This document shows positions 6,693 through 43,763 of a stretch of DNA of 64,000 bases, in pieces (positions within the stretch are counted from its first letter, which is position 1; every line of letters begins with the position of its first letter). The stretch is taken from positions 2,379-66,378 of the forward strand of contig MEUC01000005.1 of assembly GCA_001771545.1 (NCBI GenBank), read 5' to 3'. A model generated the notes under the pieces. The model worked only from the letters and a program-made list of their open reading frames with translations, had not been told where the DNA came from and did no database searches. Source of the DNA: a candidate division WOR-1 bacterium RIFOXYB2_FULL_42_35 (lineage in GTDB: Bacteria; Margulisbacteria; WOR-1; O2-12-FULL-45-9). A program made the position numbers and the translations under genes.

Positions 6693-9600
6693 TTACGCTT
6701 TTCGATGATAATCTTGCAACGCCTTAACATCAAAACCTTTTTTCTTCAGAGCATCAAGACCATTGACAGTGGCTCGGGCGCCAGAAATCGTCGTAATCAG
6801 CGGTACATTGTGCATCACGGCTAGTGAGCGGATTTTTGCTTCATCAATTTTAGTCTTCTTGCCCCCGGGAGTATTAATTAAAAAGGCAATCTCTCCTCTG
6901 TTAAGTAAATCAAGGATAGAGCCGGCTTCTTCATGAATTTTAGCTACGATTTTAACAGCGACCCCATTCTTCGTTAAAACCTTACCCGTTCCGGCCGTTG
7001 CTACAATACTATAACCAAGATCAACCAATCGTTTGGCAATCAAGATAATTGACCGTTTATCCTTATTTTTCACACTAACAAAAATCTGGCCGGATAAAGG
7101 GATCTTTTGACCTGCTGCTATCTGCGCCTTCATAAAAGCCCGGCCATAATCACTATCAATCCCCATAACCTCACCGGTTGATTTCATTTCCGGCCCCAAA
7201 ACAGCATCTGCACCAGGAAAACGATTAAAAGGAAAAACAGCTTCTTTAACCGCCACATGATCAATCTCAACTTCTTTTTCAATGCCTAACTGTTTCAAAG
7301 TTTTGCCAATCATCACCTTGGTAGCGATTTTGGCCCAGGGGATACCAGTTGCTTTACTGACAAAAGGAACTGTTCGGGAAGCGCGCGGGTTGACCTCTAA
7401 AACATACAAGGTGTCACCCTGAACTGCATATTGAATATTCATCAGGCCTTTAACTTTTAGCTCTTTTGCCAAGGCATAGGTTGATTTTTTTATCTCCTCG
7501 ATCATTTCTTCTGAGAGAGAAAAAGGCGGTATCGCACAAGCCGAATCGCCAGAATGAATGCCTGCTTCTTCAATATGCTCCATAATACCGCAGACAACGG
7601 TTTTTTTACCGTCAGAAACGGCATCAACATCAACCTCCAGGGCATCTTCAAGAAATTTGTCGACTAAAATTGGATGCTCAGGAGAGACATCAACTGCCCA
7701 ACCCATAAATTGCTCTAAAGACTTATCATCATAAACAATTTCCATGGCCCGACCACCAAGAACATAAGAAGGACGAACCAAAACCGGATAACCAATTCTT
7801 TTAGCCACCTTTTTGGCTTCAACATAAGATCTAGCCATGCCATTGGCCGGTTGTCTTAATTTTAATTTTTTAAGGATCCGTTGAAAAAGCTGCCGATCTT
7901 CCGCTCGATCAATACTTTTCGGCGAAGTCCCAATAATCTTGCCCCCGGCTTTTTCGATCGCAAAAGCCAAATTAAGCGGGGTCTGACCACCAAATTGCAC
8001 AATAATCCCGTCTGGTTTTTCTTTTTCAATAATATGGACAACGTCTTCTTTGGTTAAGGGTTCAAAATACAATTTATCAGAAGTATCGTAGTCAGTTGAA
8101 ACTGTTTCCGGATTGGAATTGACCATGATTGATTCGATCCCTTCTTCTCTCAAAGCAAAAGAAGCGTGGCAACAACAGTAATCAAATTCAATTCCTTGAC
8201 CAATCCGGTTCGGCCCTCCGCCCAAAATCAGCACCTTTTTCCTCTTCGACGGTTTTGATTCACACTCTGATTCATAAGTTGAATAATAATATGGGGTATA
8301 AGCGGGAAACTCGGCCGCACAAGTATCAACCAACTTATAAACAGGAAAAATCTTTTGCTCAACCCGTATTTTTTTGATCTCGTCTTCTGTCTTGCCCTGC
8401 AAATGAGCAATCTGGCAATCAGAAAAACCGAGTTGCTTCATTTCAAACAAAGACAGATCCTCCCGAGGAGCTTCAAGGATCTGCTTCATATTTTCTAAGA
8501 ACCAGGGGTCAACATGGGTTAACTTATAAAGCTCATCAATTGACATGCCCTGTTCAATCGCATGGCTAATATAAAAAATTCTCCGATCATTCGGTTTGCG
8601 TAAATTCTCAATAAGTTTATCCGGCTCAATAAAAGATTTACCATCATTACCCAAACCAAAACGCCCAACTTCTAGAGACCTTAATCCTTTTTGCAAAGCT
8701 TCTTTAAAGGTTCGACCAATTGCCATCGTCTCTCCAACAGACTTCATGGAAGTACCCAACACCGCTTCAGCATCTTTAAATTTTTCAAAAGTAAAACGCG
8801 GAATTTTTACAACACAGTAATCAATGGTTGGCTCAAAAGAAGCCGGGGTTTCTTTGGTGATATCATTCCTAATTTCATCCAACGTGTATCCAACTGATAA
8901 CTTCGCCGCGAACTTAGCAATAGGAAAACCTGTCGCTTTAGAGGCTAAGGCAGAGGAACGGGAAACACGTGGATTCATTTCAATAATAATCATGCGGCCA
9001 TCTTTAGGATTAACCGCAAATTGGATATTAGAACCGCCTGTCTCAACCCCAATCTCACGAATACAACGAATCGAAGCATCTCTCATAATTTGATACTCTT
9101 TGTCAGTTAAAGTCTGCGCTGGTGCAACAGTAATAGAATCTCCGGTATGAATACCCATAGCATCAAAGTTTTCAATCGAACAGACAATTACCACGTTGTC
9201 ATTTTTATCCCGCATTACTTCCAGCTCGAATTCTTTCCAGCCGGTTAAATCTTCCTCAATTAAAACTTCATGGGTTGGGGATAACTCTTGGCCATATTTC
9301 ACTATGCGCTCATATTCTTCTTCTGTGGTGGCAATCCCAGAGCCGGTACCTCCTAAGGTGAAACTAGGACGGATAATAGCCGGGAGTTTAACATACTCAA
9401 GCAACTCTTCAGCTTGCTTCCAAGTCTTAGCGGTACCACTGCGAGGCAAATCGATCTTGGCCTTTTTCATGGCGTCCTTAAATTGTTGTCGATCTTCCGC
9501 TTTTTTGATCGCCTTAAGGTCAGCCCCAATCATCTCCACACCAAATTTTTCTAAAACACCCATTTCTGCCACAGCAACTGCAGTATTTAAACCTGTTTGG

Positions 9601-9875
9601 CCCCCCAGTGTCGGCAGCAAAGCATCTGGCCGTTCTTTCTCAATAATTTTAGCGACAATTTCTGGGGTAACGGGTTCAATATAAGTGCGATCAGCCATTT
9701 CCGGATCAGTCATAATAGTGGCTGGATTAGAATTAACTAGAATAACTTCATAGCCCTCTTCTCTCAAAGCCTTGCAAGCCTGGGAACCAGAATAGTCAAA
9801 TTCACAAGCCTGACCGATTATAATCGGACCAGCACCAATGATCATGATTTTTTTTATGTCTGTTCGTTTAGGCAC
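6693..9875 (-). CDS. carB: Carbamoyl-phosphate synthase large subunit
   Basis: 1060 aa. Two ATP-grasp halves, [24 protein letters not shown], and a C-terminal MGS-like domain. Confidence 0.95.
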
Positions 9876-9891
9876 GGGAAACCTCCGGTTT

Positions 9892-9943
9892 CAATGACAA
9901 ATTAAAAATGTCAAATGACAAATGTATGTATGCCTTCGGCATG
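9892..9943. repeat. Repeat R1: conserved core CAATGACAAATTAAAAATGTCAAATGACAAATG plus GC hairpin ATGCC-TTC-GGCAT
   Basis: Shares a 25-nt block with R4 and a core plus covarying hairpin with R2 and R3. Lies between carB start and the four-helix-bundle gene stop. Confidence 0.7.
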
Positions 9944-9947
9944 TTAG

Positions 9948-10298
9948 TTATAGACTCCCTCTAGCTTTATTCGCAATCGAACTTAAAATCTTCATTAATT
10001 CATGTGATTCCTGGATCAAGTCATCCAAATTATCTTCTTTATAAATAATCTGCGCTTTTTTAATCAATCTCAACCAATATCTGGTCTCCCTAGCTTCTTT
10101 CCTTGAGATAATTACCTTATTTATAAAATCTCTCTTGGTCGCCGCTCCATCAGCCTCTTCCATGTTAGCCCCAATCGAAGTGCCTGACCTAACCAACTGT
10201 CTAGCTAATACATTTCCAGACTGAGTTTTCGGCAACTTGTCCGCAAACTTAAGTATGCGAACTCCAAATTCCAAGGTTCTATCTTGTATGTCCACCGC
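9948..10298 (-). CDS. Four-helix-bundle protein (23S rRNA intervening-sequence protein / Avd-like family, PF05635)
   Basis: ARQLVRSGTSIGANMEEADGAATKRDFINKVIISRKEARETRYWLRLI matches the family signature (RSAxSIxxNIAEG...KdFi...iArgS..E..ywL). The likely start is a GTG with GAGGAGG RBS 8 nt upstream (the track ORF starts at a TTG at 10322). Confidence 0.65.
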   Translation of the reverse strand, partial: AVDIQDRTLEFGVRILKFADKLPKTQSGNVLARQLVRSGTSIGANMEEADGAATKRDFINKVIISRKEARETRYWLRLIKKAQIIYKEDNLDDLIQESHELMKILSSIANKARGSL

Positions 10299-10316
10299 GA
10301 CCACCTCCTCAACCAA

Positions 10317-10366
10317 TGTCAAATTTCAAATGACAAATGTCAAATGAATGTGTGCCTCCGGCACAT
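10317..10366. repeat. Repeat R2: core GACAAATGTCAAATGAATGTGT plus GC hairpin GTGCC-TCC-GGCAC
   Basis: Same core-then-hairpin layout as R1. It forms an inverted-repeat pair with R3 across the TIR gene. Confidence 0.7.
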
Positions 10367-10369
10367 TAT

Positions 10370-11053
10370 TTACAAATCTCTTAAAACCTGATGACCTGAT
10401 CCCGTTAATCTCCATGTCAAAGAATCAGTCATTCCATTATAAAAGCCAATGCTCCCACCTTCTTCTATTAGATCATCATACATCAGTTTATTCGTCGCTA
10501 AGTTATATTCCTTCACAGATACCCCCAGAAATTTCTTCAAAACTTTCTGTGGCATTTCGGATTCATCAGCATTCACCAAAAGTTCAAGAATTTTTCTTTC
10601 ACTATCATTTAATTCCCTAGCCTCTCCCTTGTTCTGCTTTTTAATCCCTAAAGTAGCTTTAAATCTATCAACAATTTCTCTGATTACTTTTTTTGGATCT
10701 TTGCTCCTGTCCAAACATCTAAACTGCTCTCTCCCCTCAGTGCGGCCAAGAGGAGATACCCCATCCTCAACAATAGCAATAATTTGTTTTTTTGCATTAT
10801 CGGCACGTCCAATTTCTTGTTGGACGATCTGAGACTTATGCGCATGAAAAGTATACAAAACAACAAAAATATCCTTAGAATTGATATGGTTATTTAATTT
10901 GTCAGATAATTCTTTATCTCCCTCAGCATTCTCTGGTCGTTCCGCAATATATAAATCAATTCCCATACCGCAAAAGGCAGAAAACAATAAATCAATATAG
11001 ATTTGATCTTCTTCATGATTGCTATGGCTTAAAAAAGCTGTTTTATTTTTCAT
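10370..11053 (-). CDS. TIR-domain protein with C-terminal winged-helix DNA-binding domain
   Basis: N-terminal part AFLSHS...IDLYIAE...FVVLYTFHAHKSQIVQQEIGRA...IIAIVEDGVSP follows the TIR betaA-alphaA-betaB...betaC-alphaC pattern with a conserved Glu. C-terminal part SERKILELL...LGVSVKEYNLATNKLMYDDLIEEGG...WRLTGSG is wHTH-like. Start taken as MKNKTAF (the track ORF extends to an ATG at 11080 inside the R3 hairpin). Confidence 0.55.
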   Translation of the reverse strand: MKNKTAFLSHSNHEEDQIYIDLLFSAFCGMGIDLYIAERPENAEGDKELSDKLNNHINSKDIFVVLYTFHAHKSQIVQQEIGRADNAKKQIIAIVEDGVSPLGRTEGREQFRCLDRSKDPKKVIREIVDRFKATLGIKKQNKGEARELNDSERKILELLVNADESEMPQKVLKKFLGVSVKEYNLATNKLMYDDLIEEGGSIGFYNGMTDSLTWRLTGSGHQVLRDL

Positions 11054-11063
11054 ACAATAGTAC

Positions 11064-11113
11064 GTCGCGCAGCGACACATTCATTTGACATTTTTAATTT
11101 GACATTTGTCATT
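11064..11113. repeat. Repeat R3 (inverted relative to R1/R2): GC hairpin GTCGC-GCA-GCGAC plus core ACATTCATTTGACATTTTTAATTTGACATTTGTCATT
   Basis: Its 32-nt core differs from R4 at one position. It abuts the carA stop codon and overlaps the 5' end of the TIR gene. Confidence 0.7.
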
Positions 11114-12248
11114 ATTTATCCATTAACCTCGTAAATTCCTTAAATAGGTAGGTTGCGTCGTGTGGCCCTGGTCCAGCCTCCGGGTGATACTGAACAGAAA
11201 AGATCGGCAAGTCCTTATGCCGCATTCCTTCAACTGTTTGATCATTTAAATTAATATGGGTTAGTTCAACTTGTTTATCAGGGATGGAATCGATATCAAC
11301 AGCAAAACCATGATTCTGCGCCGTGATAGCAACTTTTCTGGTTTTTAAATCCATAACCGGCTGGTTGCCGCCATGATGACCAAACTTTAATTTATAAGTC
11401 TTGCCACCAAAAGCTAAGCCTAAAAGTTGATTGCCCAAACAAATACCAAAAATTGGCGCTTGGCCAATTAATTTTTTAATGTTTTTAATCGCATAGGTCA
11501 CAGCCGCAGGATCAGCCGGACCATTGGAGAGAAAAATCCCATCAGGCTTCATAGCCAGAACATCTTCGGCTGGAGTTTTAGCTGGGACAACCGTAACTCT
11601 ACAACCAACCCTCTCCAAATGATGCAAAATACTAAACTTAATCCCAAAATCATACGCCACAACATTGTATTTCAATTTCGGATTTTTACCTTCATTTGAC
11701 ATTTTTAATTTGTCATTTGTCATTCTAGCGAAGCTAGTCTCATTCCACACATATGGTTCTTTACAGGTCACAACTTTTACTAGATCAACACCCTCGACCC
11801 CAGGACAAGTCTTGGCTTTTTCAATCAAGCTCTTTTTAACAGTATCAACCGTTGAGATTACTCCCTTTAAAGCCCCTTGGGTGCGCAACTTTTTAGTTAA
11901 GGCTCGAGTATCTATCCCTGCAATGGCAATAATGCCATGTTTTTTGAGATATTCTGATAAGGTTTGAGTGCTCCGATAGTTAGAAGCAACCACACTGTTT
12001 TCTCGGACGACAAAACCTTCCACTTGTGGGATTGGTGACTCAATATCCTCTTCATTAACGCCATAATTACCAATAAGAGGATAAGTCATAGTAACAATTT
12101 GGCCTTTATAGGAAGGATCGGTGAGAATTTCTTGGTAACCAGTTAGCGAGGTATTGAAAACAATTTCTCCACTCTTTTCGGTTTCGGCCCCAAAAGACTG
12201 TCCCTGGAAAACTGTACCATCTTCAAGTGCGAGGATTGCTTTTGTCAC
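11112..12248 (-). CDS. carA: Carbamoyl-phosphate synthase small subunit (glutamine amidotransferase)
   Basis: [39 protein letters not shown] and [11 protein letters not shown] are CarA class-I GATase hallmarks. Confidence 0.95.
11690..11734. repeat. Repeat R4: in-frame copy of the R-family core inside the carA inter-domain linker (encodes [12 protein letters not shown])
   Basis: CATTTGACATTTTTAATTTGTCATTTGTCATT followed by CTAGC-GAA-GCTAG; it matches R3 at 31 of 32 positions. Confidence 0.65.
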
Positions 12249-12299
12249 ATGTTTTTACCTTAGTTATTATAACGAAAATTCGAGGTGGTCGCAAGGTGG

Positions 12300-12346
12300 G
12301 AAAAAACAGAAAAACACCCCCTCTCTTTAGGGGGTCGTGGTTTTAT
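12300..12346 (-). terminator. Rho-independent terminator downstream of the UPF0182 gene
   Basis: Minus-strand reading: CCCCC-taaagaga-GGGGG stem followed by TGTTTTTCTGTTTTTT. Confidence 0.65.
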
Positions 12347-12365
12347 GTGAGCGGGGTGAGTTAGA

Positions 12366-15137
12366 TTACTTCGCCAAATCTTGCAACAGCTTCTTCAGCT
12401 CATTAAGCTTTTCGCCATACGAACCAAAATTGCCTTGCTTTAAATTGGACTGCGCTTGATCAAAAACATTAAGGGCTTTTTGGGCCAGTTCTTTCGGGTT
12501 TAAATATGACTCTGTCTTCTCTTCTAATTTAACCGAGCTTCTCACCCGACCGGAAAAGACTTGAGAAAAAGCCGAGTCCAAGGATTCTCCCATAGCCACA
12601 TTATTACCATAAACCACAATTATTCTTTTTAACTGGGGCAGCTCCCCTGAAGAAGCCTCTAGATAAACCGGCTCAACATAAACAATGGAGTTTTTGATCG
12701 GAATGGCTAAAAGATTACCGCGAATAACTCGTGAACCACCTTGCCCCCACAGCGTAAACTGCTGAGAGATTTCTGTTTGTTGGTCAATCCTAGCCTCAAC
12801 CTGCATCGGCCCGTAAACCAATTTATCTTTAGGAAATTTATAAACAATTAACTTGCCATAATTAGGCATGTCTGAGCGGCCAGCCAACCAAGCAATCATG
12901 TTATCTTTATTATTAGGAGTAAACGGCAACATCAAAAGAAATTCTTCTCTTTTTTCTTTTGGCAGCCTCATTATTATATAGTAGGCTTCCATCAGCTGTT
13001 CATTGCCGGCATAAATTTCTTTGGGAATATTCCACAGGTCTTCTTGGTTGTAATAAACCTGGGGTTCATCCATATGGAAAGTTGCATACTTGTGTGCCTG
13101 GATCATAAATAAGTCGTAAGGATAACGAAGATGTTTCTTTAAGTCCTCGGGCATTTGAGCGAAAGATTTAAAAAGACCAGGATAAATCTTCTGGTAAGTC
13201 TTGGCCAAAGGATCAGCAGCATCAATAATATAAAAATCAACACTACCGTCATAAGCATTAACAACCGCCTTGACCGAGTTGCGAATATAGTTGAAGCGAG
13301 CGTAGCTTGTTCCGGTTGGGTCGGAATAGGGATAAAGATTAGAAGTTGTGTAAGCATCCTGAATCCAATAAAGTTGACCTTTGGAGATTACCAAATAAGG
13401 ATCACTGTCGTAGCTTAGAAAAGGCGCAATCGTTTTTACTCGGCCAGCGATTGAGCGGTTAAACATAATGCGGCTATCTTTGGTAATATAATCGGTTAGC
13501 AAGATTTTTAGGTCGGAGAAATTAATCGCAAAGGCCAAGCGCCGCAAGAAAGAACTAATTTGCACCCCACCCTTGCCTTGATAGGTTGAATAGACATTGC
13601 TGTCCCCTTTAGGATAATCAAATTCTTTTTCCTTGGTTTTTACAAAAACATAATTATCAGATTCTTCGCCATAATAGATCTCTGGCCGCTCAATCTTCAA
13701 ATCAGTCGAACTAACTGGCGGAATGTCTTTAACCAACAGATTAGGCAAACCATCGGAAGTCTTTTCATTTACAGGAGAGAGACAAACCCCATAACCATGG
13801 GTAAAACTCAAATGCTGGTTAACCCAGTTTTGAGCCTTGGCCGGTAGTTTAGAAATTTTTAGCTCTCGAGGAGAGAGCATGACTTCTTGATATTTGCCAT
13901 TAATTTGATAACGGTCAACATCAACATCAGCAAAGTCATAATAGAGCCGAATCCCTTGCAACTGATTGTAAGTTTTTTTGATCGGCCGCGGATCCCACAA
14001 CCTGATATTACTAATAGTTTGGGTGTTGCGACGCAAGTCCGCAAGAGAAAGGTCCTGTTCTGCCGCGAATTCTTTTTCTTCAATATTATCTAAGCCATAG
14101 GCTTGGCGAGTAAATTTAATGCCGTTGGCGATATAGGGGGACTCCATAGAAATCTCATTGGGTTTTACTTGTAGATTTTGAATAAAGGCCGGATAAATTC
14201 CCCCCATCACAACAGCAACAACTAAGTAAGTAGCCGCACCAACCAGCGGAAGCTTATAATCCTTTTGAAAAATATTGATCAAGAAAAGTGCTGACAGGAC
14301 AAATAAAACCAAGATTTGCAGATTGTAGCCCAACAACTGGGCGTTAACATCAGTATAGCCGGCACCAAAAACTATTCCACGGGCAGAGTAAAGAATTTCT
14401 AATCTTCCTAACCATAAACCCCAAGCAAACACTCCCGTCAATAAGGCCAAAAGTAATGCTAAATGGGCCTTCACCCCTCTAGCGAAAGAAACTTCAACTT
14501 GCTCAAGAGAAAAACCATTCTTGGTAAAATATATCCAGAGTGCAGCTAAACCAGAGATCATTAGCGCAGACATGATAAAACCTTGGATAAATTTCAATAA
14601 CGGGAATTGAAAAACATAAAAGCCAATATCCTTATTAAAAATAGGATCGGCAATCCCAAAGGAAGAAGCATTCAAGGCCTTGAGCACAACTTGCCATTGA
14701 GTTAAAGCAGACAGCCCCATAAAGAGAGCAACAACCAGGATCCCCAGCAACCAAAAAAGATTAGCCCTATCATGCCCTTCCGGTTGCGGCCCAACGTCTA
14801 TGATCTGGTCGTCATCATTATCGTTAGCTCCCCCCCCTTCTCCAAAAAGCTGCTCAATCATTTTTTGGATGTCAGGAGATTTTCTCCTAACCCCATTTTT
14901 TTTCAATCCTTTGGTCAAACGATTGGCAACATAAATATTAACCGCCGCAATTACCAAGAAAAGCAGGCCAAAAGCTAAGCCGGTTAAAACTTTGGCTTTA
15001 AGATTGATCCAAAAAATTGCCGAAAAACCCAGATTTTGCAGCCAGAGAAAGTTCGGATAAATAGAAATCAGGGCAGAAATAAGACTCCAAACAATAAAAA
15101 CCAAAATGATTGTAATAGCCAGGGGAAAGCGTCGCAT
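12366..15137 (-). CDS. UPF0182-family large membrane protein (COG1615-like)
   Basis: 923 aa. An N-terminal ~300 aa with multiple TM helices is followed by a large soluble domain. Size and architecture fit the UPF0182 family. Confidence 0.45.
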   Translation of the reverse strand: MRRFPLAITIILVFIVWSLISALISIYPNFLWLQNLGFSAIFWINLKAKVLTGLAFGLLFLVIAAVNIYVANRLTKGLKKNGVRRKSPDIQKMIEQLFGEGGGANDNDDDQIIDVGPQPEGHDRANLFWLLGILVVALFMGLSALTQWQVVLKALNASSFGIADPIFNKDIGFYVFQFPLLKFIQGFIMSALMISGLAALWIYFTKNGFSLEQVEVSFARGVKAHLALLLALLTGVFAWGLWLGRLEILYSARGIVFGAGYTDVNAQLLGYNLQILVLFVLSALFLINIFQKDYKLPLVGAATYLVVAVVMGGIYPAFIQNLQVKPNEISMESPYIANGIKFTRQAYGLDNIEEKEFAAEQDLSLADLRRNTQTISNIRLWDPRPIKKTYNQLQGIRLYYDFADVDVDRYQINGKYQEVMLSPRELKISKLPAKAQNWVNQHLSFTHGYGVCLSPVNEKTSDGLPNLLVKDIPPVSSTDLKIERPEIYYGEESDNYVFVKTKEKEFDYPKGDSNVYSTYQGKGGVQISSFLRRLAFAINFSDLKILLTDYITKDSRIMFNRSIAGRVKTIAPFLSYDSDPYLVISKGQLYWIQDAYTTSNLYPYSDPTGTSYARFNYIRNSVKAVVNAYDGSVDFYIIDAADPLAKTYQKIYPGLFKSFAQMPEDLKKHLRYPYDLFMIQAHKYATFHMDEPQVYYNQEDLWNIPKEIYAGNEQLMEAYYIIMRLPKEKREEFLLMLPFTPNNKDNMIAWLAGRSDMPNYGKLIVYKFPKDKLVYGPMQVEARIDQQTEISQQFTLWGQGGSRVIRGNLLAIPIKNSIVYVEPVYLEASSGELPQLKRIIVVYGNNVAMGESLDSAFSQVFSGRVRSSVKLEEKTESYLNPKELAQKALNVFDQAQSNLKQGNFGSYGEKLNELKKLLQDLAK

Positions 15138-16795: not shown

Positions 16796-18333
16796 ATTGT
16801 AATTTTCCACAATGGACACCATAATACAAAAAGCAAAATCACCAAGGCCATAAAGATCCAGAGCAGATAAACATTGAGACTTCTTCTCATAACTTTTTTT
16901 AGCATATTGCATAGTGCTTCGATTAAGGCAGCAACGCCACAATAAAACTTATCTACACTTAAATAAGACAGAAGCGTGCTATTTTCTTTCCCTCTTCCCT
17001 CTCCCACCCCCAACAACCCGAACCTAACCCCAAAAAAATAAATGGCCAGCCCTAAAAATACTGCCATTGTCGTATCAACTAACAACTTAAAATTCCAAAA
17101 CTCAAAGTGCAATAAAGCAATACCAGTTAAGGGAACAAATTTATTCAAAACCGGACCAGGAAAAAGCCCAACCACTAAACAGATCCCTGCCAAAATCAAC
17201 AGAGAAAAACACATCGGGGCAGGAACTTCATTGGTTTTTTTAAGCTGCGCCGGTAATTCACCCCAAAAAACTTGCAGAAATAATTTGAGAAAAACAGCCG
17301 TTGTCCCTGCTGCCGTGATAATTAAGGCTGTTTTGAGCCAAAGATTCCCAGCAGTCGCACTAACGATTAAAGCTTTACTGGCAAAACCATTAAAAGGCGG
17401 GATTCCAGATATCGCCAGAGCACCGATGCAAAAAGTTGCGGCAGTTATAGGCATGCGCTTGCCTAAGCCTCCTAAGTTTTTCAACTCCCTTTCCCGAGTT
17501 GCATAAATAACCGCACCCAGACAAAGAAAGAGCAGCATCTTAAATGTTGCATGGTTGAGAATATGAAAGAGCCCCCCACCTATGCCCAAGCTTGTGCCTA
17601 TGCCCATCCCCAAAAGCACATACCCCATTTGGCTTATACTCGAATAAGCCAGCAGCCTTTTAATATTAGTCTGTCTTATAGCTAAGACAACACCAAAAAT
17701 CATCGAGAGCACCCCAACCCATATTAAGAGCTGCATTCCCAGTTTAAAAATAAATAGCATTCTAATTAAGCCATAGGCACCAATTTTAATCACCAAGCCA
17801 GAAAGAAGTGCCGAGACCGGTGAGGGAGCAATCGGATGAGCATCCGGCAACCAAACGTGAAATGGCACAGCCCCAATCTCAATTAAACAACCGATTACAA
17901 AGAGAGCTAGAATAAGCTTGATTGATTCAGCCGGTAAAGTGTGCGCAACACGAGCAAATACGGCAAACTCAAAAGTCCCGGTCAGGTTATACAGCATCAA
18001 AGCTGCCACCAAAATAAACAGACCACCGGCAAACATCATAATTACATATTTAAACCCGGCAGGAAATGATTCTTTCTTAGTGTTATCAACAATTAAAAAG
18101 TAAACAGCAACAGTCATCAATTCCAAACAAATATAAAAGCTTAATAAATCCTTGGCTAAGATTGTTCCTAAAATACCGAGCAAGGCCATTAAAAGAACAA
18201 AATAGTAGCGGAATAAGTTTCGTTTTACATAAGCGAGTGAATAAACAAACACCAAAGAAAATAACATCGTAACCATAATCAACATAAAAAAACTTAAACT
18301 ATCGACCGGCCAAAATGACGTTGGAAATATCAT
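16792..18333 (-). CDS. Mrp/Mbh-type antiporter subunit D-like (NuoN/MrpD proton-pumping family)
   Basis: 513 aa polytopic protein. WLPDAHPIAPSPVSALLSG (conserved TM7/8 motif of NuoL/M/N-MrpA/D). Confidence 0.75.
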   Translation of the reverse strand: MIFPTSFWPVDSLSFFMLIMVTMLFSLVFVYSLAYVKRNLFRYYFVLLMALLGILGTILAKDLLSFYICLELMTVAVYFLIVDNTKKESFPAGFKYVIMMFAGGLFILVAALMLYNLTGTFEFAVFARVAHTLPAESIKLILALFVIGCLIEIGAVPFHVWLPDAHPIAPSPVSALLSGLVIKIGAYGLIRMLFIFKLGMQLLIWVGVLSMIFGVVLAIRQTNIKRLLAYSSISQMGYVLLGMGIGTSLGIGGGLFHILNHATFKMLLFLCLGAVIYATRERELKNLGGLGKRMPITAATFCIGALAISGIPPFNGFASKALIVSATAGNLWLKTALIITAAGTTAVFLKLFLQVFWGELPAQLKKTNEVPAPMCFSLLILAGICLVVGLFPGPVLNKFVPLTGIALLHFEFWNFKLLVDTTMAVFLGLAIYFFGVRFGLLGVGEGRGKENSTLLSYLSVDKFYCGVAALIEALCNMLKKVMRRSLNVYLLWIFMALVILLFVLWCPLWKITI

Positions 18334-19793
18334 GGCAATAACACCTTTAGGGCTGGCTGAATTAGATTAATAACCAGGGCTGGAAATATGCCGATCAACA
18401 GACATAAAAAAGCAAAAGCATAGACTGTCAGGTGCTCAAAATGTCCTACCGGGTTTGGTCTAAAGTCATGTTTATGATGGAATTCTTCCGGAGAAAAAAA
18501 CATTTGGATCACTCGAAAGTAACAAGCGGCAGTTAAAAGAATGCCTAAAAAGAGACAAAAGATGATCAGATAATTATGCTTCAATAAAACTGCCTGGATA
18601 ACAAACAATTTACTAACAAAACCATTTAAAGGCGGAATACCAATAGCCGCTAAAGATAACAAACAAAAAGTGATCGTCAGCCCGGGCATCTGCTGCCAAA
18701 CACCTTTCATCTGGTGTATTTTCCAAAACCCGGTTTGGGAAATAATAATCCCGGCACAAAAAAACAACCCTGTCTTAATCAGAGCATGATTAAAAATATG
18801 AAACAAAGCCCCTTGCAAGCCTAATTGCGTCCCCAACCCCACCCCAATTAAAATAAAACCTATTTGACTGATACTGGAATAAGCCAACATTCTCTTAATT
18901 TCAATCTGAACCAAAGCCATCGCTGAAGCAAAAATCAGCGAAACAATCCCAAAGAAAATGATTACATTGCCAACCCCATGAGTCAATAAGGTCGCGCCAA
19001 AAAACAAATAAAAGATGCGCAACATTGCATAGAGACCAACCTTAAGAATTAACCCGGAAAGAAGACCACTAACCGGCGTTGGGGCCTGAGAATGAGCCTC
19101 TGGAATCCAAGTATGCAAAGGAAACATGCCACACTTAATACCAAAACTAATCATCATCAGAGAAAAAACCACATAAACAATTTGCGGATTAGCTTGATAA
19201 ATCCCTGGGATCTGCACTGCTATAACATCCATATTCAAACTGCCGGTCAACGAATATAAAATAGCGATTGAGAGCAAAAAGAAGACCCAGGTGGCCTCGG
19301 TCATAACCAAATATTTAAAGCTGGCAATAATTGTACGTGGTTTATGCTTATAAGTAATCAAGACATAGGAAGCTACCGCTAGCATCTCAAAGAATACATA
19401 CAGATTAAAAATGTCACGAGTCAGAATAATCCCTAAGATCGACGACAAGGCTATCATCAGCAGGGAATAAAACCTTCGGGCATACAAATATATCCCCAAA
19501 GAATAAATAAGAATCAGCAAACCAACCAACATAACTAAAACCGCAAAAAAGAAACTTAATCCGTCGACTTGCAAACTGATGCCAAATGGCGCCGGCCAAC
19601 CGCCTAAGTTATATTTGATAACCTGGCCAGCCAAAACCGAACGAGCCGTTGTGGAAAGCACAAAAGCAGAGGCCAGCCAGGCAAAAATGGCAACCAACTC
19701 GGCCCCCCTTTTCACTTTAGTATACTTAGTCAAGTGAGTTAAGAAGGCCGCTAAAAGAGGAATAGATATAATTAGTATTGGTGCATTTATCAT
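18330..19793 (-). CDS. Mrp/Mbh-type antiporter subunit D/A-like (MbhH/MrpD family)
   Basis: 487 aa; WIPEAHSQAPTPVSGLLSG motif; second MrpD paralog. Confidence 0.75.
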   Translation of the reverse strand: MINAPILIISIPLLAAFLTHLTKYTKVKRGAELVAIFAWLASAFVLSTTARSVLAGQVIKYNLGGWPAPFGISLQVDGLSFFFAVLVMLVGLLILIYSLGIYLYARRFYSLLMIALSSILGIILTRDIFNLYVFFEMLAVASYVLITYKHKPRTIIASFKYLVMTEATWVFFLLSIAILYSLTGSLNMDVIAVQIPGIYQANPQIVYVVFSLMMISFGIKCGMFPLHTWIPEAHSQAPTPVSGLLSGLILKVGLYAMLRIFYLFFGATLLTHGVGNVIIFFGIVSLIFASAMALVQIEIKRMLAYSSISQIGFILIGVGLGTQLGLQGALFHIFNHALIKTGLFFCAGIIISQTGFWKIHQMKGVWQQMPGLTITFCLLSLAAIGIPPLNGFVSKLFVIQAVLLKHNYLIIFCLFLGILLTAACYFRVIQMFFSPEEFHHKHDFRPNPVGHFEHLTVYAFAFLCLLIGIFPALVINLIQPALKVLLP

Positions 19794-19846
19794 TTTATTT
19801 ATTGATGCTTATCCGCCGAAGTCTGCCGTAGGCAGACGAAGGAGGA

Positions 19847-20197
19847 TTAGTCATTTTGTTTGTTAATTAAATCCTTTACATCCAGAGTTTTATACTCTTC
19901 ATATATTTTTAAGGCTAAGGCCAGCGCCAGGGAAGTTATCACCAGACCAATCACAATGGAAGTCAACATCACCGCCTGAGGCAGCGGATCAACCATCGGC
20001 AGAAGAGTTCTGCCATGATCAAAAATAGCCGCCTGGCCAGAGACTACATACCCAAGGCTGACAAAAAACAAAATCACTCCGGAGTTCATCACATAGAGGC
20101 ACATGATTATTTTTATAGTATTTCTTTTGGTCAGAACTCCAAAAAGTCCCAACAAAATAATAATTATTCCTACCGTAATCCCATTAAAGCCGATCAT
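19847..20197 (-). CDS. mrpC: Mrp antiporter subunit C (NuoK-like)
   Basis: 116 aa, 3 TM, NuoK/MnhC-like. Confidence 0.7.
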   Translation of the reverse strand: MIGFNGITVGIIIILLGLFGVLTKRNTIKIIMCLYVMNSGVILFFVSLGYVVSGQAAIFDHGRTLLPMVDPLPQAVMLTSIVIGLVITSLALALALKIYEEYKTLDVKDLINKQND

Positions 20198-20622
20198 TCT
20201 TCACTCCCAAATTTAATTAGGCGATAAAAAACCACGGCAATCCCTGTTCCCACCATAAAACCAATGGTCAAGTTAAGAAAAAAAATTAAGCCGGCACTTG
20301 GCACTGTCCCAATCTCTCCCCTGGGCATAAAGTCCGAGAGAAAAGCCCGGCCGAAAAACATGCTCATAAAACCCATCAGCAGAAAAACCAGCATACCAAT
20401 ATTTTTTATTAAAGAAAGAGCTTTCTCTTGAAAACGGTTTTCTGCCTCCTTAATCCCTTCAACCAAACCCAAAAGGATAATGGCTGAACCAAAGATTACT
20501 CCACCCTGAAAGCCACCTCCCGGAGAGAGATGGCCATGAGAAATCAAATAACAGCCATAAAGCAACATAAAAGGAAAGAGTTTTCTGGTAAAAATACTGA
20601 CAATTTCAGACGTTCGCTTCAA
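20194..20622 (-). CDS. mrpB: Mrp antiporter subunit B (MnhB/MbhF-like)
   Basis: HGHLSPGGGFQGG motif characteristic of MnhB. Confidence 0.7.
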   Translation of the reverse strand: MKRTSEIVSIFTRKLFPFMLLYGCYLISHGHLSPGGGFQGGVIFGSAIILLGLVEGIKEAENRFQEKALSLIKNIGMLVFLLMGFMSMFFGRAFLSDFMPRGEIGTVPSAGLIFFLNLTIGFMVGTGIAVVFYRLIKFGSEE

Positions 20623-20888
20623 TCCTTTTCTCCTTCACCTGGTTTTCTCAGCAACATAAAAACCCCCAAAGCTGCTGCGAAGAAAACAGTTGCTTCTCCC
20701 AGCGTATCATAGGCCCGATAATCCAGATAGATGGCCGTGACAATGTTAAGTGCCCCTGTATCAGCAACTCCATGGTTAAGATAATATTGCGACAGCCCTG
20801 TTTTAGGCTGGCCAAAATTTATTTTTATGGCACTAAGAAGAAAAAAGGCCAAGAGCAACAACAGAATTATCGGTACAATTCTTTTCAA
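20619..20888 (-). CDS. MnhB-domain small subunit (MbhE-like; split MrpA C-terminal part)
   Basis: GALNIVTAIYLDYRAYDTLGEATV is the MnhB-domain signature. Confidence 0.6.
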   Translation of the reverse strand: MKRIVPIILLLLLAFFLLSAIKINFGQPKTGLSQYYLNHGVADTGALNIVTAIYLDYRAYDTLGEATVFFAAALGVFMLLRKPGEGEKD

Positions 20889-21118
20889 TTTTCTCTTCTC
20901 CTGGTTTTACTGATCGCCACCACAAAAAGAACTGTTGAGACCCCTGCCCCAATGGCAGCTTCTGCCATGGCAAGATCTAAAGCATGGAGGTTAAAGAAAA
21001 GAAAGGTCAGCACCAAGCTGAAGGCGGCTAAAATAATGACTGAATTCAAGAGATCTTTCATCTCAATTGCCAGTAATGCCGTGACAATTAACATAATTAA
21101 AAAAACGTCATTAATCAT
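20885..21118 (-). CDS. DUF4040/MbhD-like small membrane subunit (split MrpA C-terminal part)
   Basis: ALDLAMAEAAIGAGVSTVLFVVAI. The likely start is the internal MINDVF (the track ORF extends to 21181, overlapping mrpG). Confidence 0.55.
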   Translation of the reverse strand: MINDVFLIMLIVTALLAIEMKDLLNSVIILAAFSLVLTFLFFNLHALDLAMAEAAIGAGVSTVLFVVAISKTRRREN

Positions 21119-21410
21119 TTTTAGCTTCCCACGGTTTAATCCCCGATTCAAGCGCACCCCTAGCAATGGCATGTGAAGCAACCGGGCTAGTAATCAAGAT
21201 AAACACGGCAATCAGAAAAATGCGCCAAGAAAAATGACTCAAGCCAGAATAAATCATTAAACCAATAAAAATAGACAGTACCCCACCCGTGCCTGCCTTA
21301 CCAGCGGGATGGAGACGGGTATAGACATCGGGAAAACGCATAATGCCTATAACCCCAAAAGAGATAAATAACATTCCCAAAGCAAAAAAAACATCAGCAA
21401 CTATAATCAT
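21111..21410 (-). CDS. mrpG: Mrp antiporter subunit G
   Basis: GVIGIMRFPDVYTRLHPAGKAGTGG is the MnhG/PhaG signature. Confidence 0.7.
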   Translation of the reverse strand: MIIVADVFFALGMLFISFGVIGIMRFPDVYTRLHPAGKAGTGGVLSIFIGLMIYSGLSHFSWRIFLIAVFILITSPVASHAIARGALESGIKPWEAKND

Positions 21411-37104: not shown

Positions 37105-38348
37105 TACTTTACCGCCTCTTTAATGATATTTTCGAAAGATGTCACACAAGCTTCACGAGAGAAGTACTTTTCTGCGGCTTGCCGCCCATTCTGACCCATC
37201 TCGTCCCGCAACTTTTTATCATTATATAGTTTCAAGACCGCTTGCGCAAGCTCAGCCGGGTTTTCGGCCTCAACACTTAGGCCACAGTTATGTTCTGCCA
37301 CAATCTTAACTGCATCACTTTTACAAGAGACGCTGACAATTGCAGGAAGTCCTGCAGCCATAATGCTTAAAAGCTTACTAGGCACAACAGGAGTAGCCAG
37401 GGCTTTACGAAGTGTTACCAAAGAAACATCTGAACTATGAAGAATTAAAGGATAAAGGTTATGTGGTTGGGTTGGTACAAAAAGGACATTTGTAAGACCA
37501 AGTTCTTTAACTTGAGCCTCCAAAGCTGGCTTCTTGACCCCATCACCGACTAAAACAAATTTGATATTATCGGTCCTGAGTCTTGTGTCCTGAATCTTGT
37601 GTCTTTGCAAAATCTCCGCCGCTCTAACAACAACATCAAGTCCCTGAGCAAACCCCATTACCCCGGCAAAAGAGACCACAAACTTGTCTTTTAAATCATA
37701 TTTACGGCTGAAATCATTATCTCTGGCTCCAGGTTGGATAGCTAAAGTATTAACCCAGTTATGAGCAATCTTTACCCGCTCCTCTTTGGCCCCTTTAGTG
37801 ACGACATAATCCTTATTGCCGGCAGAATGAACCGCAACATAATCGGACTTTTTATAAACGAACTTTTCCATAATTTGAGAAAGCTTAATCAATGATTTAT
37901 TATTTAACAAACCCAGATCAATCACAGTTTGCGGATAAAGATCCTGGATATTACTAATCAAGGGGCTTCTTTTCATCCTTCCCAGCCAATACCCGGCAAG
38001 TCCCAAAGTAAGTGGCGGCGAATAGATCAGAATGGCATCCACTTTTTTCACCCTTAAGCCGCCAAGAAAGAAAATTATGGCCAAAAGAAAATGCTCAACC
38101 CCACGAAAGAAAGGACTTGTCCTCACTAAAGGTGGGGTTTGATAACGAAAAACATTTATGCCGGCAATTGTTTCCCTGTTAGGCAAAGCCTTAAGATCCG
38201 TCCCTTCGGCAACATTATAAAGAGGCTTGCGAGTCACCACAGAAACTTTATGGCCCCGTCTAACCAGTGATTCTGCCAATTCAAAAAAAAGGGTGGCACA
38301 GGATTTTGTTTCCGGAGGGAAAGCCTCAGATAAAATAAGTAGATGCAT
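37104..38348 (-). CDS. Glycosyltransferase family 4
   Basis: GT-B fold with C-terminal GT1-type motif. The probable start is MHLLILSEAFPP (the track ORF extends to 38393). Confidence 0.7.
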   Translation of the reverse strand: MHLLILSEAFPPETKSCATLFFELAESLVRRGHKVSVVTRKPLYNVAEGTDLKALPNRETIAGINVFRYQTPPLVRTSPFFRGVEHFLLAIIFFLGGLRVKKVDAILIYSPPLTLGLAGYWLGRMKRSPLISNIQDLYPQTVIDLGLLNNKSLIKLSQIMEKFVYKKSDYVAVHSAGNKDYVVTKGAKEERVKIAHNWVNTLAIQPGARDNDFSRKYDLKDKFVVSFAGVMGFAQGLDVVVRAAEILQRHKIQDTRLRTDNIKFVLVGDGVKKPALEAQVKELGLTNVLFVPTQPHNLYPLILHSSDVSLVTLRKALATPVVPSKLLSIMAAGLPAIVSVSCKSDAVKIVAEHNCGLSVEAENPAELAQAVLKLYNDKKLRDEMGQNGRQAAEKYFSREACVTSFENIIKEAVK

Positions 38349-40542
38349 TGATTGTTTGTGGGACTCCTGTTTTGATTGATTCAATAATGGCAAAGGTAGT
38401 TAAAGTTGTATAAATATGGTCTTTAAGAGGCACAGCTTCCCGACTACTCTTAACCGCAGCAAAAAAAGCTTCAAACTCTCCTTCGTAACCACGATCAAGG
38501 TTAAAGGATTTTTTCTTTTGACCCCTACCATCTTTAGCAAAAAATAATGATTTAAAGTTATCAATTACACAAACTGACTTGCCGGAAAACACTTCAATTC
38601 TTTCTCTGGGAAGAAGTTTATCGCCTTGAGAAGCGTAAAGGATTGTCGCAATCGAACCATTGTGCATTTTAAGCGTAATAACTAAATTGTCTTCCCCTTT
38701 TTCTGTGGCAGCCTGAGCAAAAACACTTTCGGGCAATGAGCCGGATAAAGCTTGAACCAAATCAACAAAGTGACAAACCTCGCCAACAACCCTGCCCCCA
38801 CCCTCCGCTGCATCGTGAACCCAACTTTCAGCCGGGACAAACCCAGCATTAACTCGACAATTGATAACCAGGTTTGAACCAGAACCGAGCAATTCTTTGG
38901 CCTTCAAGGTCAAGGGAGCAAAACGACGGTTAAAACCTACCATCAGGAGCCGTGGATCGGGGTTCGCCGTGCCTGCCGGCAGGCAGGTGGTTCGTGAATA
39001 GATATCGATTATTGATTTAAGTTCTGAATCATTCATGCACAAAGGTTTTTCTACAAAGACGTGCTTACCAGCCTTAAGGGAATCAATCACCATCTGGGCA
39101 TGAAGATTATGCCTAGTTGCAATTAAAATCGTATTAATATTTGGATCTTTTAATAATTCCTGATAGTCGGCCACACAATACTCAAACCCATATTTTTTAC
39201 CTGTGTGACGACCCTTAAAACCTTCCGCATCTGCAAGCCCAACCAATTTAATATTTTTGAACTTTTTTAGAATGGGGAGCATGCTAGTGTTGGCGTGGAG
39301 GCCTGCGCCGATCAGCCCTATTTTGACCTGCTCCAACTGTCTGCTGTCTGCTGTCTGCTTTCTACTATCTAATAAGCTTATCTTCTTCGACCCAGGACCC
39401 ATGACCCCAGACCCAAGACCATCCCCATATTCTAACAAAACCCCAAGATACGGCACTCCCCCCTTTAAAATCATCTCATACCCGGCTAGAGCTTCTGCCA
39501 ACTTAAAGCGATGGCTAATAAGCTTTTCTAGTTCAACCTTTCCTTCAGCTACCAAATCAAGGAAACAAGCCATATTGCGTTGAGTGGTCCAACGAACATA
39601 AGGCAAAGGATAATCTTGCCCTTTATTTTCATAAAGGGGATCAAATTTACCGGGGCCGGTGGCGCGAGAAACAATGACACTTAATTCTTTTTTGAAGAAG
39701 TCTTGTCTGGGCACATCCAAAGAAACCATACCACAAGCAACAATACGGCCCTTATCCCGGGAAATTTCCGCAGCCATTTCAATCGGTTTATTATCTTGAG
39801 AGCCTGCCATAATAATAACGGCATCAGCCCCAACTCCGCCAGTAAAGTCAGCTACAACTTGATTAATATCATCTCTACCAATTAAGGCAACTTGATCAAC
39901 TCCAAATTCCCTGGCCATTTTTAGTTTGGCCTCGGAGATATCAACCCCAATAACTTTACAGCCAAAGGCTTTAAGCATCTGAACCGTTAACTGTCCCAAC
40001 AGCCCTAACCCAAGAACAACGACATTTTCACCAAAAGTTAAGTTGGCAACCCGAATAGCATTCAAAGCAATCGAACCTAAACCGACAAACGAGGCTTCTT
40101 CAAAAGAAACCCCTTGAGGAATTTTGACCAGCATATTTTTTGGCACATAACTTAGTTCGGAATGAGTGGCAAACCCATCGCCAAAACAGGCGATTCTATC
40201 GCCAACTTTGACACCATAAATCCCCTCTCCAACCTCTCTAACCAGACCGGCTGAACTGTAGCCAAGAGTAACAGGAGTATCTAAACGGCTCATGACAGCT
40301 TTATAAGTATCTAATAAACCGTCAACTTTAATTTTGTTGATAACCTGTTTAACCAGGTCAGGACGAGCCAGGACTTTTCCCAAATAACCTTTTTGAGCCA
40401 GACTGATCATTAGCTTCTCCGTGCCAACGCTGACAAGGGAATTTTTTGTTTCCAACAAAACCCCACCAGAACGCAAAAGAGGATCCGGAACTTCCACTAA
40501 CTGAAGCTCCCCTGATTTATAGTTTTGGATTATCTGTTTCAT
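38326..40542 (-). CDS. Bifunctional oxidoreductase: N-terminal Zn-dependent alcohol dehydrogenase (MDR) domain fused to C-terminal Gfo/Idh/MocA domain
   Basis: N-terminal MDR fold (GDRIACFGDG..., VVLGLGLLGQL). C-terminal IGLIGAGLHAN...EKPLC Gfo/Idh/MocA Rossmann domain. They are joined by a low-complexity repeat-encoded linker. Confidence 0.7.
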   Translation of the reverse strand: MKQIIQNYKSGELQLVEVPDPLLRSGGVLLETKNSLVSVGTEKLMISLAQKGYLGKVLARPDLVKQVINKIKVDGLLDTYKAVMSRLDTPVTLGYSSAGLVREVGEGIYGVKVGDRIACFGDGFATHSELSYVPKNMLVKIPQGVSFEEASFVGLGSIALNAIRVANLTFGENVVVLGLGLLGQLTVQMLKAFGCKVIGVDISEAKLKMAREFGVDQVALIGRDDINQVVADFTGGVGADAVIIMAGSQDNKPIEMAAEISRDKGRIVACGMVSLDVPRQDFFKKELSVIVSRATGPGKFDPLYENKGQDYPLPYVRWTTQRNMACFLDLVAEGKVELEKLISHRFKLAEALAGYEMILKGGVPYLGVLLEYGDGLGSGVMGPGSKKISLLDSRKQTADSRQLEQVKIGLIGAGLHANTSMLPILKKFKNIKLVGLADAEGFKGRHTGKKYGFEYCVADYQELLKDPNINTILIATRHNLHAQMVIDSLKAGKHVFVEKPLCMNDSELKSIIDIYSRTTCLPAGTANPDPRLLMVGFNRRFAPLTLKAKELLGSGSNLVINCRVNAGFVPAESWVHDAAEGGGRVVGEVCHFVDLVQALSGSLPESVFAQAATEKGEDNLVITLKMHNGSIATILYASQGDKLLPRERIEVFSGKSVCVIDNFKSLFFAKDGRGQKKKSFNLDRGYEGEFEAFFAAVKSSREAVPLKDHIYTTLTTFAIIESIKTGVPQTINASTYFI

Positions 40543-42089: not shown

Positions 42090-42126
42090 TCACGTACCGG
42101 CTTTTTGCGAAAGGTGTACATTATCT
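42090..42126 (-). pseudogene. Fragment A: decayed copy of the DUF362 gene 3' end (encodes IMYTFRKKPVRE*)
   Basis: CTTTTTGCGAAAGGTGTACATTATC is homologous to 44240..44265 inside the DUF362 gene. It follows the DUF2283 stop in the same frame. Confidence 0.6.
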
Positions 42127-42614: not shown

Positions 42615-42671
42615 CTTATTGGCATTATATCATGAATTCAACCAGATGGGCTCTAAACTTTAAGCTCCCTC

Positions 42672-43581: not shown

Positions 43582-43590
43582 AATGGTTAA

Positions 43591-43762: not shown

Positions 43763-43763
43763 A

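Follow-up and report, generated by a model that had tools for sequence, protein, structure and literature searches.

How does repeat DNA come to be translated in frame inside a biosynthetic gene, and where did it come from? This question is raised by carA (11112..12248, minus strand, 378 aa, GTG start) of the candidate division WOR-1 bacterium RIFOXYB2_FULL_42_35 (GTDB lineage Bacteria; Margulisbacteria; WOR-1; O2-12-FULL-45-9), which lies in a stretch of 64,000 nucleotides of GenBank assembly GCA_001771545.1 (contig MEUC01000005.1, positions 2,379 to 66,378 of the forward strand), hereafter the window, whose first letter is position 1. The window contains four copies of a 37-nt unit, R1 to R4, and R4 falls inside the carA coding sequence. 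We consider R4 likely to be a solo arm from a family of small selfish elements, namely the heptamer-hairpin arms of cassettes that carry an S23p-type four-helix-bundle (4HB) gene, which resemble the intervening sequences (IVSs) of 23S rRNA and lie outside rRNA.

R4 (11688..11724, minus strand; nhmmer E = 7e-8) was recovered by motif and profile searches as a run of five heptamers, which in gene sense reads AATGACA AATGACA AATTAAA AATGTCA AATGAAG GT and is translated in frame within CarA. The copies occupy 9893-9929, 10315-10351, 11077-11113, and 11688-11724; a fifth was not found in the 64-kb window by exact-motif or profile search. Each copy comprises 5 x 7 + 2 nt (gene sense AATGACA AATGWCA AATTAAA AATGTCA AATGAAK GT), corresponding on the opposite strand to the series ACATTCA TTTGACA TTTTTAA TTTGWCA TTTGTCA. 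A first-pass annotation made from the sequence alone had described the carA segment as a copy of R3, the repeat at the end of carA, and this description holds: a 34-nt pattern at 11691-11724 recurs at 11080-11113 with 1 mismatch (0 matches in 100 shuffles), and as 37-nt units the two are identical at 35 of 37 positions. R3 and R4 are oriented one way and R2 and R1 the other, such that R3 and R2 constitute an inverted repeat of 46 nt with 85% complementarity, while 26 consecutive nt of R4 recur without mismatch in R1 in inverted orientation.

The four copies differ in their hairpins. R1 to R3 carry a 13-nt inner hairpin (5-bp stem, 3-nt loop) directly after the ...AATG(A/T)ATGT end, on the side opposite to the hairpin of R4: GTCGC-TGC-GCGAC (11064-11076) in R3 (11064..11113, minus strand), GTGCC-TCC-GGCAC (10352-10364) in R2 (10315..10364, plus strand), and ATGCC-TTC-GGCAT (9930-9942) in R1 (9878..9942, plus strand), which bears in addition an outer hairpin, GAAACC-TCC-GGTTTC, at 9878-9892 (GAAACC-GGA-GGTTTC on the carB strand). 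R4 lacks an inner hairpin and has its own at the outer end, CTAGC-TTC-GCTAG in gene sense (11725..11737, minus strand), encoding T-S-F-A-R. The first-pass annotation had recognized this hairpin as CTAGC-GAA-GCTAG, correctly, but ended the segment at 11734, 3 nt short of the hairpin's last nucleotide; it mentioned neither the heptamer substructure nor the hairpins of R1 to R3. The 5' half of the hairpin coincides with codons conserved in CarA. At its other end R4 continues into a tail, AAAAATCCGAAATTG (11673..11687, minus strand; K-N-P-K-L), which occupies the place of the inner hairpin GTCGC-TNC-GCGAC (V-A-x-R-R) of relatives; among the comparison loci, this hairpin-less form (GGT-ARW-AAT-CCG-AAA-TTR) is confined to the carA genes of the window and of locus L005 (L-numbers denote comparison loci or contigs, P-numbers homologous proteins). 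An assembly artefact was ruled out, since an identical CarA is encoded in the same neighbourhood in three metagenome assemblies made independently, and a metagenome-assembled genome at NCBI has the same arrangement. An intein, an intron, or a programmed frameshift was ruled out by the 45-nt size and the uninterrupted frame. No Rfam family matches the arms or anything else in 9700-12400, a single tRNA being the only match in the whole window, and the arm query has no match in the phage database.

The other three copies frame a block of cassette genes between carA and carB (6693..9875, minus strand). The inverted R3/R2 pair encloses a 227-aa open reading frame (ORF; 10370..11053, minus strand) with a ThsB-like Toll/interleukin-1 receptor (TIR) domain (Pfam ThsB_TIR 2.6e-9; PADLOC ThsB 4e-9), near which no ThsA gene was found, and between R2 and R1 sits a 115-aa 4HB ORF of the 23S_rRNA_IVP/S23p family (9948..10295, minus strand; PF05635, E = 5.7e-21). 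The start codon of the TIR ORF lies a few nucleotides past a TACTAT box that follows the hairpin, with no Shine-Dalgarno sequence visible there. The carA and carB genes overlap in L004, L137, L138, and L139 and are separated by 22 nt in L006; in the window the 1.2-kb cassette block splits them. Comparison with L004, whose CarA is 92% identical to that of the window outside the linker, places about 1.2 kb of inserted DNA exactly between ...TTAATGGAT and CGTGCCTAAACGA. The inserted block starts AAATAATGACAAATG and gives carA its stop codon, a TAA (11112-11114) within the first heptamer of R3; it ends ...TTTGTCATTGAAACCGGAGGTTTCC and gives carB its Shine-Dalgarno sequence, a GGAGG inside the outer hairpin of R1. 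By these comparisons the block is a derived insertion. L005 has an analogous block at the same junction, with ORF97 and a 4HB gene between arms, and elsewhere, in L128, L142, and L143, arms also end in the Shine-Dalgarno sequence and start codon of the downstream host gene.

The family beyond the window was searched in one metagenome scan using the pattern AATGWCMAATGWAKGWRTNNCNNNGNNAY, in which the hairpin interior was left free. The scan yielded 53 matches in distinct contexts on 50 metagenome contigs. Watson-Crick pairing holds at the two free stem positions in 46/53 and 49/53 matches, compared with expected fractions of 0.41 and 0.54 if the columns were independent, and both show C:G to G:C exchanges, giving at least seven stem variants. 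The inner-hairpin loops are TTC (32), TGC (7), TCC (4), and TAC (3), or GNA on the opposite strand; the stability of DNA mini-hairpins with a C-GNA-G loop is unusually high. After the inner hairpin comes an AT-rich spacer (ATTATTATAAT...), often succeeded by a second hairpin and an inverted array, and palindromic double-arm units of about 120 nt occur in L099, where the arms are 13 nt apart, and in L142. Outer hairpins of unrelated sequence adjoin the array in 15 of the 82 distinct arms (perfect stem of at least 5 bp) versus 2.7% of random positions, an enrichment of ~7-fold, and the CTAGC-GAA-GCTAG hairpin of R4 is probably a genuine part of this architecture. The arm is a composite: an outer hairpin that varies, about five heptamers of the AATGACA/AATGACC/AATTAAA type, and an inner hairpin whose 5-bp stem covaries and whose loop is TNC. 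Arms remain 93-95% identical between genomes with protein differences of 20-28%, and apparently also between phyla. In six loci (L095, L111, L115, L121, L123, and L131, of which L123 is from the window's own sample) arms are found immediately upstream of the 5' ends of genes for a family of ~340-aa proteins, or overlapping these ends. In these genes the inverted heptamers read as hydrophobic H-L-T-L-V-I-G-H-L, at the position expected of a signal peptide, and the family looks like putative outer-membrane beta-barrels.

The ordered architecture bears on whether R4 could have been made where it stands. A local heptamer array generated by replication slippage in an unconstrained linker, comparable to the short tandemly repeated repetitive (STRR) sequences and alike to other arrays by convergence, would fit the restriction of short-period arrays in the window to period 7 (three, versus none at periods 4-6 or 8-11), as well as a second in-frame heptamer site at 39332-39420, the different heptamers at the carA site of L004 and L005, and the plain arrays found in Nostoc plasmids. 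However, slippage does not yield, on dozens of contigs and across different genes, the same ordered five non-identical units together with their junction and hairpin, and it leaves the inverted pairs that enclose 4HB genes unexplained; we regard it as a very improbable origin of R4. The Nostoc arrays were the only plasmid-database matches to the composite query (two plasmids; 33 nt, 94%, (AATGACA/AATGACC)n); they are plain intergenic tandem arrays, TAATGACAAATGAC(A/C)AATGAC..., without hairpins (L148 1501-1545 and L149 1501-1548). The site at 39332-39420 lies inside ORF 38326-40542 (minus strand) and consists of the arrays (CTGTCTG)3-CTTTCTA-CTATCTA and GACCCAG-GACCCAT-GACCCCA-GACCCAA with the palindrome ATAAGCTTAT between them. 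It is translated as ...GLGSGVMGPGSKKISLLDSRKQTADSRQ... between the two halves of the 738-aa product, which from sequence we take to be ADH-like and Gfo/Idh/MocA-like. A direct repeat of another kind, 31-76 nt long and present in three to four copies at 42096-44298 (74-90% identity, spacing 543-1016 nt), probably represents paralogous coding repeats.

The link between arms and 4HB genes extends well beyond the carA-carB junction. Inverted arm pairs, present in L102, L113, L117, and L128, enclose a 4HB gene alone (L117), a 4HB gene with an unknown ORF (L113 and L128, as in L005), or an unknown ORF alone (L102); Pfam searches of the other cargo ORFs returned nothing significant. All 8 of the 4HB genes in 393 kb of arm-bearing loci have arms on both sides, while neither arms nor 4HB genes occur in 820 kb of carA loci that served as controls and belong to other phyla. 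The control loci were drawn from the CarA scan of genome contigs, in which the matches listed have at most 65% identity and represent Omnitrophota, Nitrospirota, and others, with no WOR-1 among them. Three more 4HB homologues (77, 69, and 60% identity), taken only for their long contigs, also have arms on both sides, bringing the arm-flanked 4HB genes to 11 of the 11 examined. Two of these three lie between purQ and purL; 4HB cassettes with arms were observed in this position in purS-purQ-purL operons of L142 (2863-3417), L143 (2881-3488), and L144, which, like the carA/carB position, is between genes for subunits of one enzyme.

Within the cassettes the two ends are distinguishable. The 5' end of the cargo carries ...GAAGGT followed by a GTCGC-type hairpin, with the start codon 3-10 nt past a TATAAT-like spacer, and the 3' end of the 4HB gene carries ...ATTAAAAATGWCAAATGAATGT followed by an ATGCC-type hairpin; the copies internal to carA are of the cargo-5'-end type. 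A canonical promoter in the arm was considered and dropped, although the TATAAT-like spacer precedes cargo start codons, after a sigma-70 scan found no more sites than in shuffled sequences and none in the arms; the "terminator-like" matches of the same promoter and terminator scan are the mini-hairpins themselves.

These contexts also decide the direction of descent. If the extragenic copies stemmed from duplicated coding sequence of the carA linker, the recurrence of the peptide motif in CarA orthologues would be expected. Most members of the family, however, are in unrelated contexts with no carA nearby, including valS, ygiQ-like genes, and the surroundings of 4HB genes next to purQ/purL, and carA alleles without an array keep an ancestral W-x4-W motif. 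We give a carA origin almost no credence, in agreement with the first-pass annotation, which had named such an origin as the outcome that would overturn its reading; extragenic copies are numerous in many genomes.

Alignment of CarA orthologues, which the first-pass annotation had proposed as a check, shows that in many WOR-1/Margulisbacteria relatives family members with 72-80% identity fill this site, and that in others it is empty or holds different arrays. The carA genes of L006, L114, L138, and L139 have family members at the same codon position as R4; those of L006, L114, and L139 retain a perfect GTCGC-TNC-GCGAC hairpin, and that of L138 is decayed. An MTN-type peptide is present in 17-19 CarA homologues among the matches listed. 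In other relatives the linker contains repeat-like peptides (NSKYEILNTKQ; PLPEGEG..RVRG; VEATFRSP..GGLKTAAT) or is short and empty. The filled and empty forms can be compared in close pairs: filled P0005 and empty P0027 are 96.2% identical outside the linker; filled P0003, P0007, and P0012, which have three different arrays, are 94-96% identical there to empty P0029; and filled P0034 is 92% identical to empty P0058. In a neighbor-joining tree, too weak to count events, the filled alleles are not monophyletic. Empty alleles keep the W-x4-W motif common to E. coli and outgroups (SPWADK), and in filled alleles the second Trp is replaced by Tyr, Phe, His, or another residue, in the window by the Phe of T-S-F-A-R. 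The empty-allele contig L141 has an arm directly after the carA stop. By these sequences the carA linker is a long-standing hot spot for arms in WOR-1/Margulisbacteria, a site that has long been occupied in the lineage and has also been turning over by re-acquisition, conversion, or allelic recombination. In L006 a 21-nt insertion, TCCCTCGATTTCGCTCGGGGT (SLDFARG), is nested within the carA heptamer array at 10536-10556, and the same contig has a second carA-carB-like pair 6 kb downstream (17265-21161). An ARG-box or PyrR-type site, suggested by the TGACA-N9-TGTCA symmetry, was rejected on the grounds that species differ in the heptamers they have at the carA site.

The same comparisons bear on the age of R4. 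The near-identity of R4 and R3 had been taken as a sign of recent transposition or gene conversion, and several features do favour such an event: the two copies are only 611 bp apart in the same orientation, R4 shares its perfect inverted stretch with R1, and in L005 the carA-internal array is of the AAATGAA/AAATTAA type and the extragenic arms of the same genome are of the TGACCAA type, so likeness between internal and external arrays is not universal and in the window could reflect local conversion. The R4-R3 identity is nevertheless not special, because R4 matches arms on four unrelated contigs (L128, L100, L095, and L092) equally well, at 35 of 37 positions each, and the consensus of non-window arms at 34 of 37. 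Recency is also opposed by the filling of the same codon position in many relatives, by the absence from R4 of the inner hairpin of R3, by the specific tail common to R4 and the L005 carA, and by the junction, which is GAAGGT, the common form of the family, in R4 and GAATGT in R3. We therefore judge a recent origin from R3 unlikely. Nor does the change look like a plain addition of 45 nt, as had been assumed: the linker of E. coli CarA is about as long as that of the window, and between L139 (filled) and L140 (empty), which have 86.7% DNA identity, 66 nt replace 33 unrelated nt.

That CarA accommodates such changes is consistent with the position of the insert. By Pfam, CPSase_sm_chain spans residues 6-131 and GATase residues 198-373, with R4 between the two; the inter-domain location given in the first-pass annotation was correct, but the motif that follows the segment is YNVVAYDFG rather than HVVAYDFG. 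We modeled CarA with AlphaFold2 (56-sequence alignment, mean predicted local distance difference test (pLDDT) score 89, predicted template-modeling score (pTM) 0.90), and pLDDT falls below 50 only at residues 179-188 and 358-362. The R4 insert is modeled as a disordered surface loop between the domains. Together with the variation of linker length among aligned CarA homologues, the model bears out the proposal of a dispersed-repeat copy read in frame in a variable, permissive linker. On the forward strand of the arm, only the frame ATG-ACA-AAT-GAC is free of TGA, which accounts for the recurrent M-T-N-D... peptide.

Other proteins have taken up arms in a comparable way. In L094 valS an arm with its hairpin is in frame (...PVYYRKREMSNDQLPMTNEGVASRQDLYVG...), and likewise in a ygiQ-like radical-SAM gene of L091. 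The valyl-tRNA synthetase (ValRS) of L094 is closest to sequences from the Candidate Phyla Radiation (CPR)/Patescibacteria, and in ValRS of this group (P0121-P0240) there is an insertion hot spot right after WGHRIPVWY, with the heptamer-derived peptides IFNSQFSISN, KSQKSKVKS, NKLKIKNEKLK, and MSNDQLPMTN; a few ValRS sequences have entire extra domains at this site instead. In one class the Trp is changed to Tyr and the junction reads VYYRKQ, the translation of a palindrome GTTTAC-TATC-GTAAAC, and in L094 valS (2190-2420) there is a 10-bp stem, TCCCGTTTAC-TATC-GTAAACGGGA, the 5' half of which consists of the conserved F-P-V-Y codons. A Trp beside the insert is lost in both CarA and ValRS, where host codons join a hairpin.

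We also considered what the arms might do in RNA. Predicted duplex energies are -48.7 kcal/mol for R3:R2, -39.2 for R4:R1, -39.6 for R4:R2, and -38.1 for R3:R1, compared with about -17 to -19 for shuffled sequences. R4 might on this basis be a cis-regulatory RNA that pairs with R1 or R2 and serves as an RNase III site or a translation-sensitive switch tuning carA versus carB. The R4:R1 duplex has 26 perfect pairs and nests around R3:R2; in several species the carA array and hairpin are far better conserved than synonymous sites, for which Ks is near saturation; and rRNA IVS stems of like architecture are RNase III substrates (PMC4990558). On the other hand, L006, L114, L138, and L139 have the carA arm without a cassette or an inverted partner between carA and carB, other relatives have no arm or only decayed or unrelated arrays, a cut inside carA would destroy the message, and Rfam, as noted above, holds no matching family. 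A regulatory role for R4 is, in our estimate, quite improbable.

Several observations weigh against reading R4 as a solo arm of a mobile family. The window has only four arms, all within 1.9 kb, and the arm-bearing metagenome loci were picked by means of an arm-derived pattern. At the carA site of the nearest relative, L004, the heptamer is a different one, (GATCCAA)4, and therefore some in-place turnover of arrays occurs. Filled and empty alleles occur intermingled in relatives with 92-96% identity outside the linker, so that one old insertion followed by vertical descent is insufficient, and the loss of the Trp in all filled alleles is not predicted by simple insertion. At the carA/carB junction, the one junction at which filled and empty forms were compared, there is no target-site duplication; gene tables of the fetched loci list no transposase, integrase, or reverse transcriptase near any cassette; and the case for mobility comes entirely from the distribution of the sequences.

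With these points taken into account, the solo-arm reading remains the one that we favour. Two inverted arms enclose a 4HB gene, with or without one extra ORF, and such cassettes are located at operon junctions, supplying the stop codon upstream and the Shine-Dalgarno sequence downstream. By analogy with rRNA IVSs, and with the predicted energies, the paired arms in the carA-carB transcript would form long stems that are cut by RNase III, releasing the cassette RNA, and R4 may form a duplex with R1 or R2 in the transcript as well. Solo arms also occur inside coding regions, where the surviving copies are in the open M-T-N-D frame. R4 would have been acquired long ago in WOR-1/Margulisbacteria, at a site where arrays are gained, rewritten, and lost time and again, and would have lost its inner hairpin; its likeness to R3 and R1 would reflect conservation of the family sequence, possibly aided by conversion among the copies, rather than a fresh jump. 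The arm probably adds nothing to CarA function and would persist because it is harmless.

A hairpin-guided DNA process is suggested by the conserved mini-hairpins with GNA loops and by those hairpins that host codons at the flanks help to form, and hairpin-guided remodelling of flanking host codons would explain the change of Trp to Tyr or Phe beside the insert. More tentatively, and as a possibility that we do not favour at present, the 4HB cassettes with heptamer-hairpin arms could form an unrecognized mobile class spanning phyla (WOR-1/Margulisbacteria and CPR/Patescibacteria), of which the classical 23S rRNA IVSs would be the rRNA-resident members, with hairpin-guided re-entry into operon junctions and into loops of CarA, ValRS, and YgiQ. 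The 4HB protein, which is presumably a relative of the Avd protein of diversity-generating retroelements, would then be the element's own factor.

IVS-like 4HB cassettes that colonize operon junctions and protein loops are a more interesting result than the carA copy itself. The origin, mobility, and purpose of S23p-encoding IVSs have been open questions since the 1990s, and here the IVS architecture (a 4HB ORF, inverted ends, and heptamers) appears as dispersed cassettes in protein operons. The filled and empty alleles of close relatives are natural before-and-after pairs for the study of insertion, and the arms provide a defined DNA or RNA ligand to try against the 4HB protein. For annotation, odd peptides of the MTNDQ, KSQKSK, or similar type in proteins from uncultured lineages stem from the translation of repeat DNA and are not functional motifs. 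Metagenome assemblies are also likely to be broken by the arms; among the close homologues of the window 4HB protein, many are on very short contigs (0.5-3 kb), which fits such breakage.

Among known systems, the Rickettsia palindromic elements (RPEs), reportedly described by Ogata et al. in 2000 as in-frame selfish repeats in protein-coding genes and cited in a review of miniature transposable elements (PMC10969869), likewise form a dispersed family with intergenic members as well as in-frame members within conserved genes; the latter sit at surface or variable regions, are translated as an additional peptide, and keep the host ORF. RPEs are 100-150-bp palindromes with no heptamer substructure and no ORF cassettes, and they occur in another host lineage, whereas here a single arm (37-66 nt) is inserted; it is the architecture that sets the two apart. 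The cyanobacterial STRR heptamer repeats, which Mazel et al. are said to have described in 1990, share tandem heptamers with the arms, including the units TGACAAA/TGACCAA. They are, however, plain homogeneous runs in heterocystous cyanobacteria, while the arms are fixed, ordered series of unlike units with hairpins and inverted pairs in a WOR-1 host. Intergenic heptamer direct repeats have been described by MacGregor 2015 (PMC4679880), and a preprint (bioRxiv 10.1101/328856) places WOR-1/Margulisbacteria as sibling lineages of Cyanobacteria.

Repetitive extragenic palindromic (REP) elements and REPINs, which are mobilized by REP-associated tyrosine transposases (RAYTs) (Bertels and Rainey 2011, PMC3116915), and MITEs (miniature inverted-repeat transposable elements) are also short, non-coding and palindromic hairpin-forming repeats that occur singly or as inverted doublets, as in L099, and are conserved within and between genomes. 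REP and REPIN elements differ in having no heptamer arrays, and the arms here enclose cargo genes; no RAYT (IS200/IS605-like Y1 transposase) turned up in the loci, in which no search aimed at RAYTs was made. The terminal inverted repeats of MITEs are matched also in the composite units (L099 and the upstream element of L142), but a MITE-like target-site duplication is lacking at the one carA/carB junction compared, and gene tables of the fetched loci contain no transposase of a parent insertion sequence (IS). An integron attC array is not matched either, there being no integrase in the window neighbourhood and the arms around the TIR ORF being inverted rather than same-oriented.

The IVS of Coxiella 23S rRNA is a 428-nt selfish element with an S23p (4HB) ORF and 28-bp terminal inverted repeats (PMC4990558); it has GACAGAT tandem heptamers, variable in number, before the ORF and is excised by RNase III (Warrier et al. 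2016, PMC4990558). Such IVSs reside in a 23S rRNA helix, whereas the present cassettes lie between operon genes (carA/carB, purQ/purL) in a window with no rRNA, and they have in addition mini-hairpins, in some cases another cargo ORF (TIR-like), and solo arms that are translated within proteins; R4 itself is such an arm, without an ORF. RNase III excision is a feature of the S23p IVSs, and the window cassettes have computed duplex potential. Since the cassettes lie outside rRNA, the compared junction has no target-site duplication, and no RAYT, IS, or integrase partner was found, we do not assign the arms to any of these families. The closest system is nonetheless the S23p IVS of Coxiella, Leptospira, and others, with which the cassettes have in common a ~120-aa 4HB ORF, terminal inverted repeats that form a long stem, tandem heptamers adjacent to the ORF (of different unit sequence), and an essential transcription unit that is left intact.

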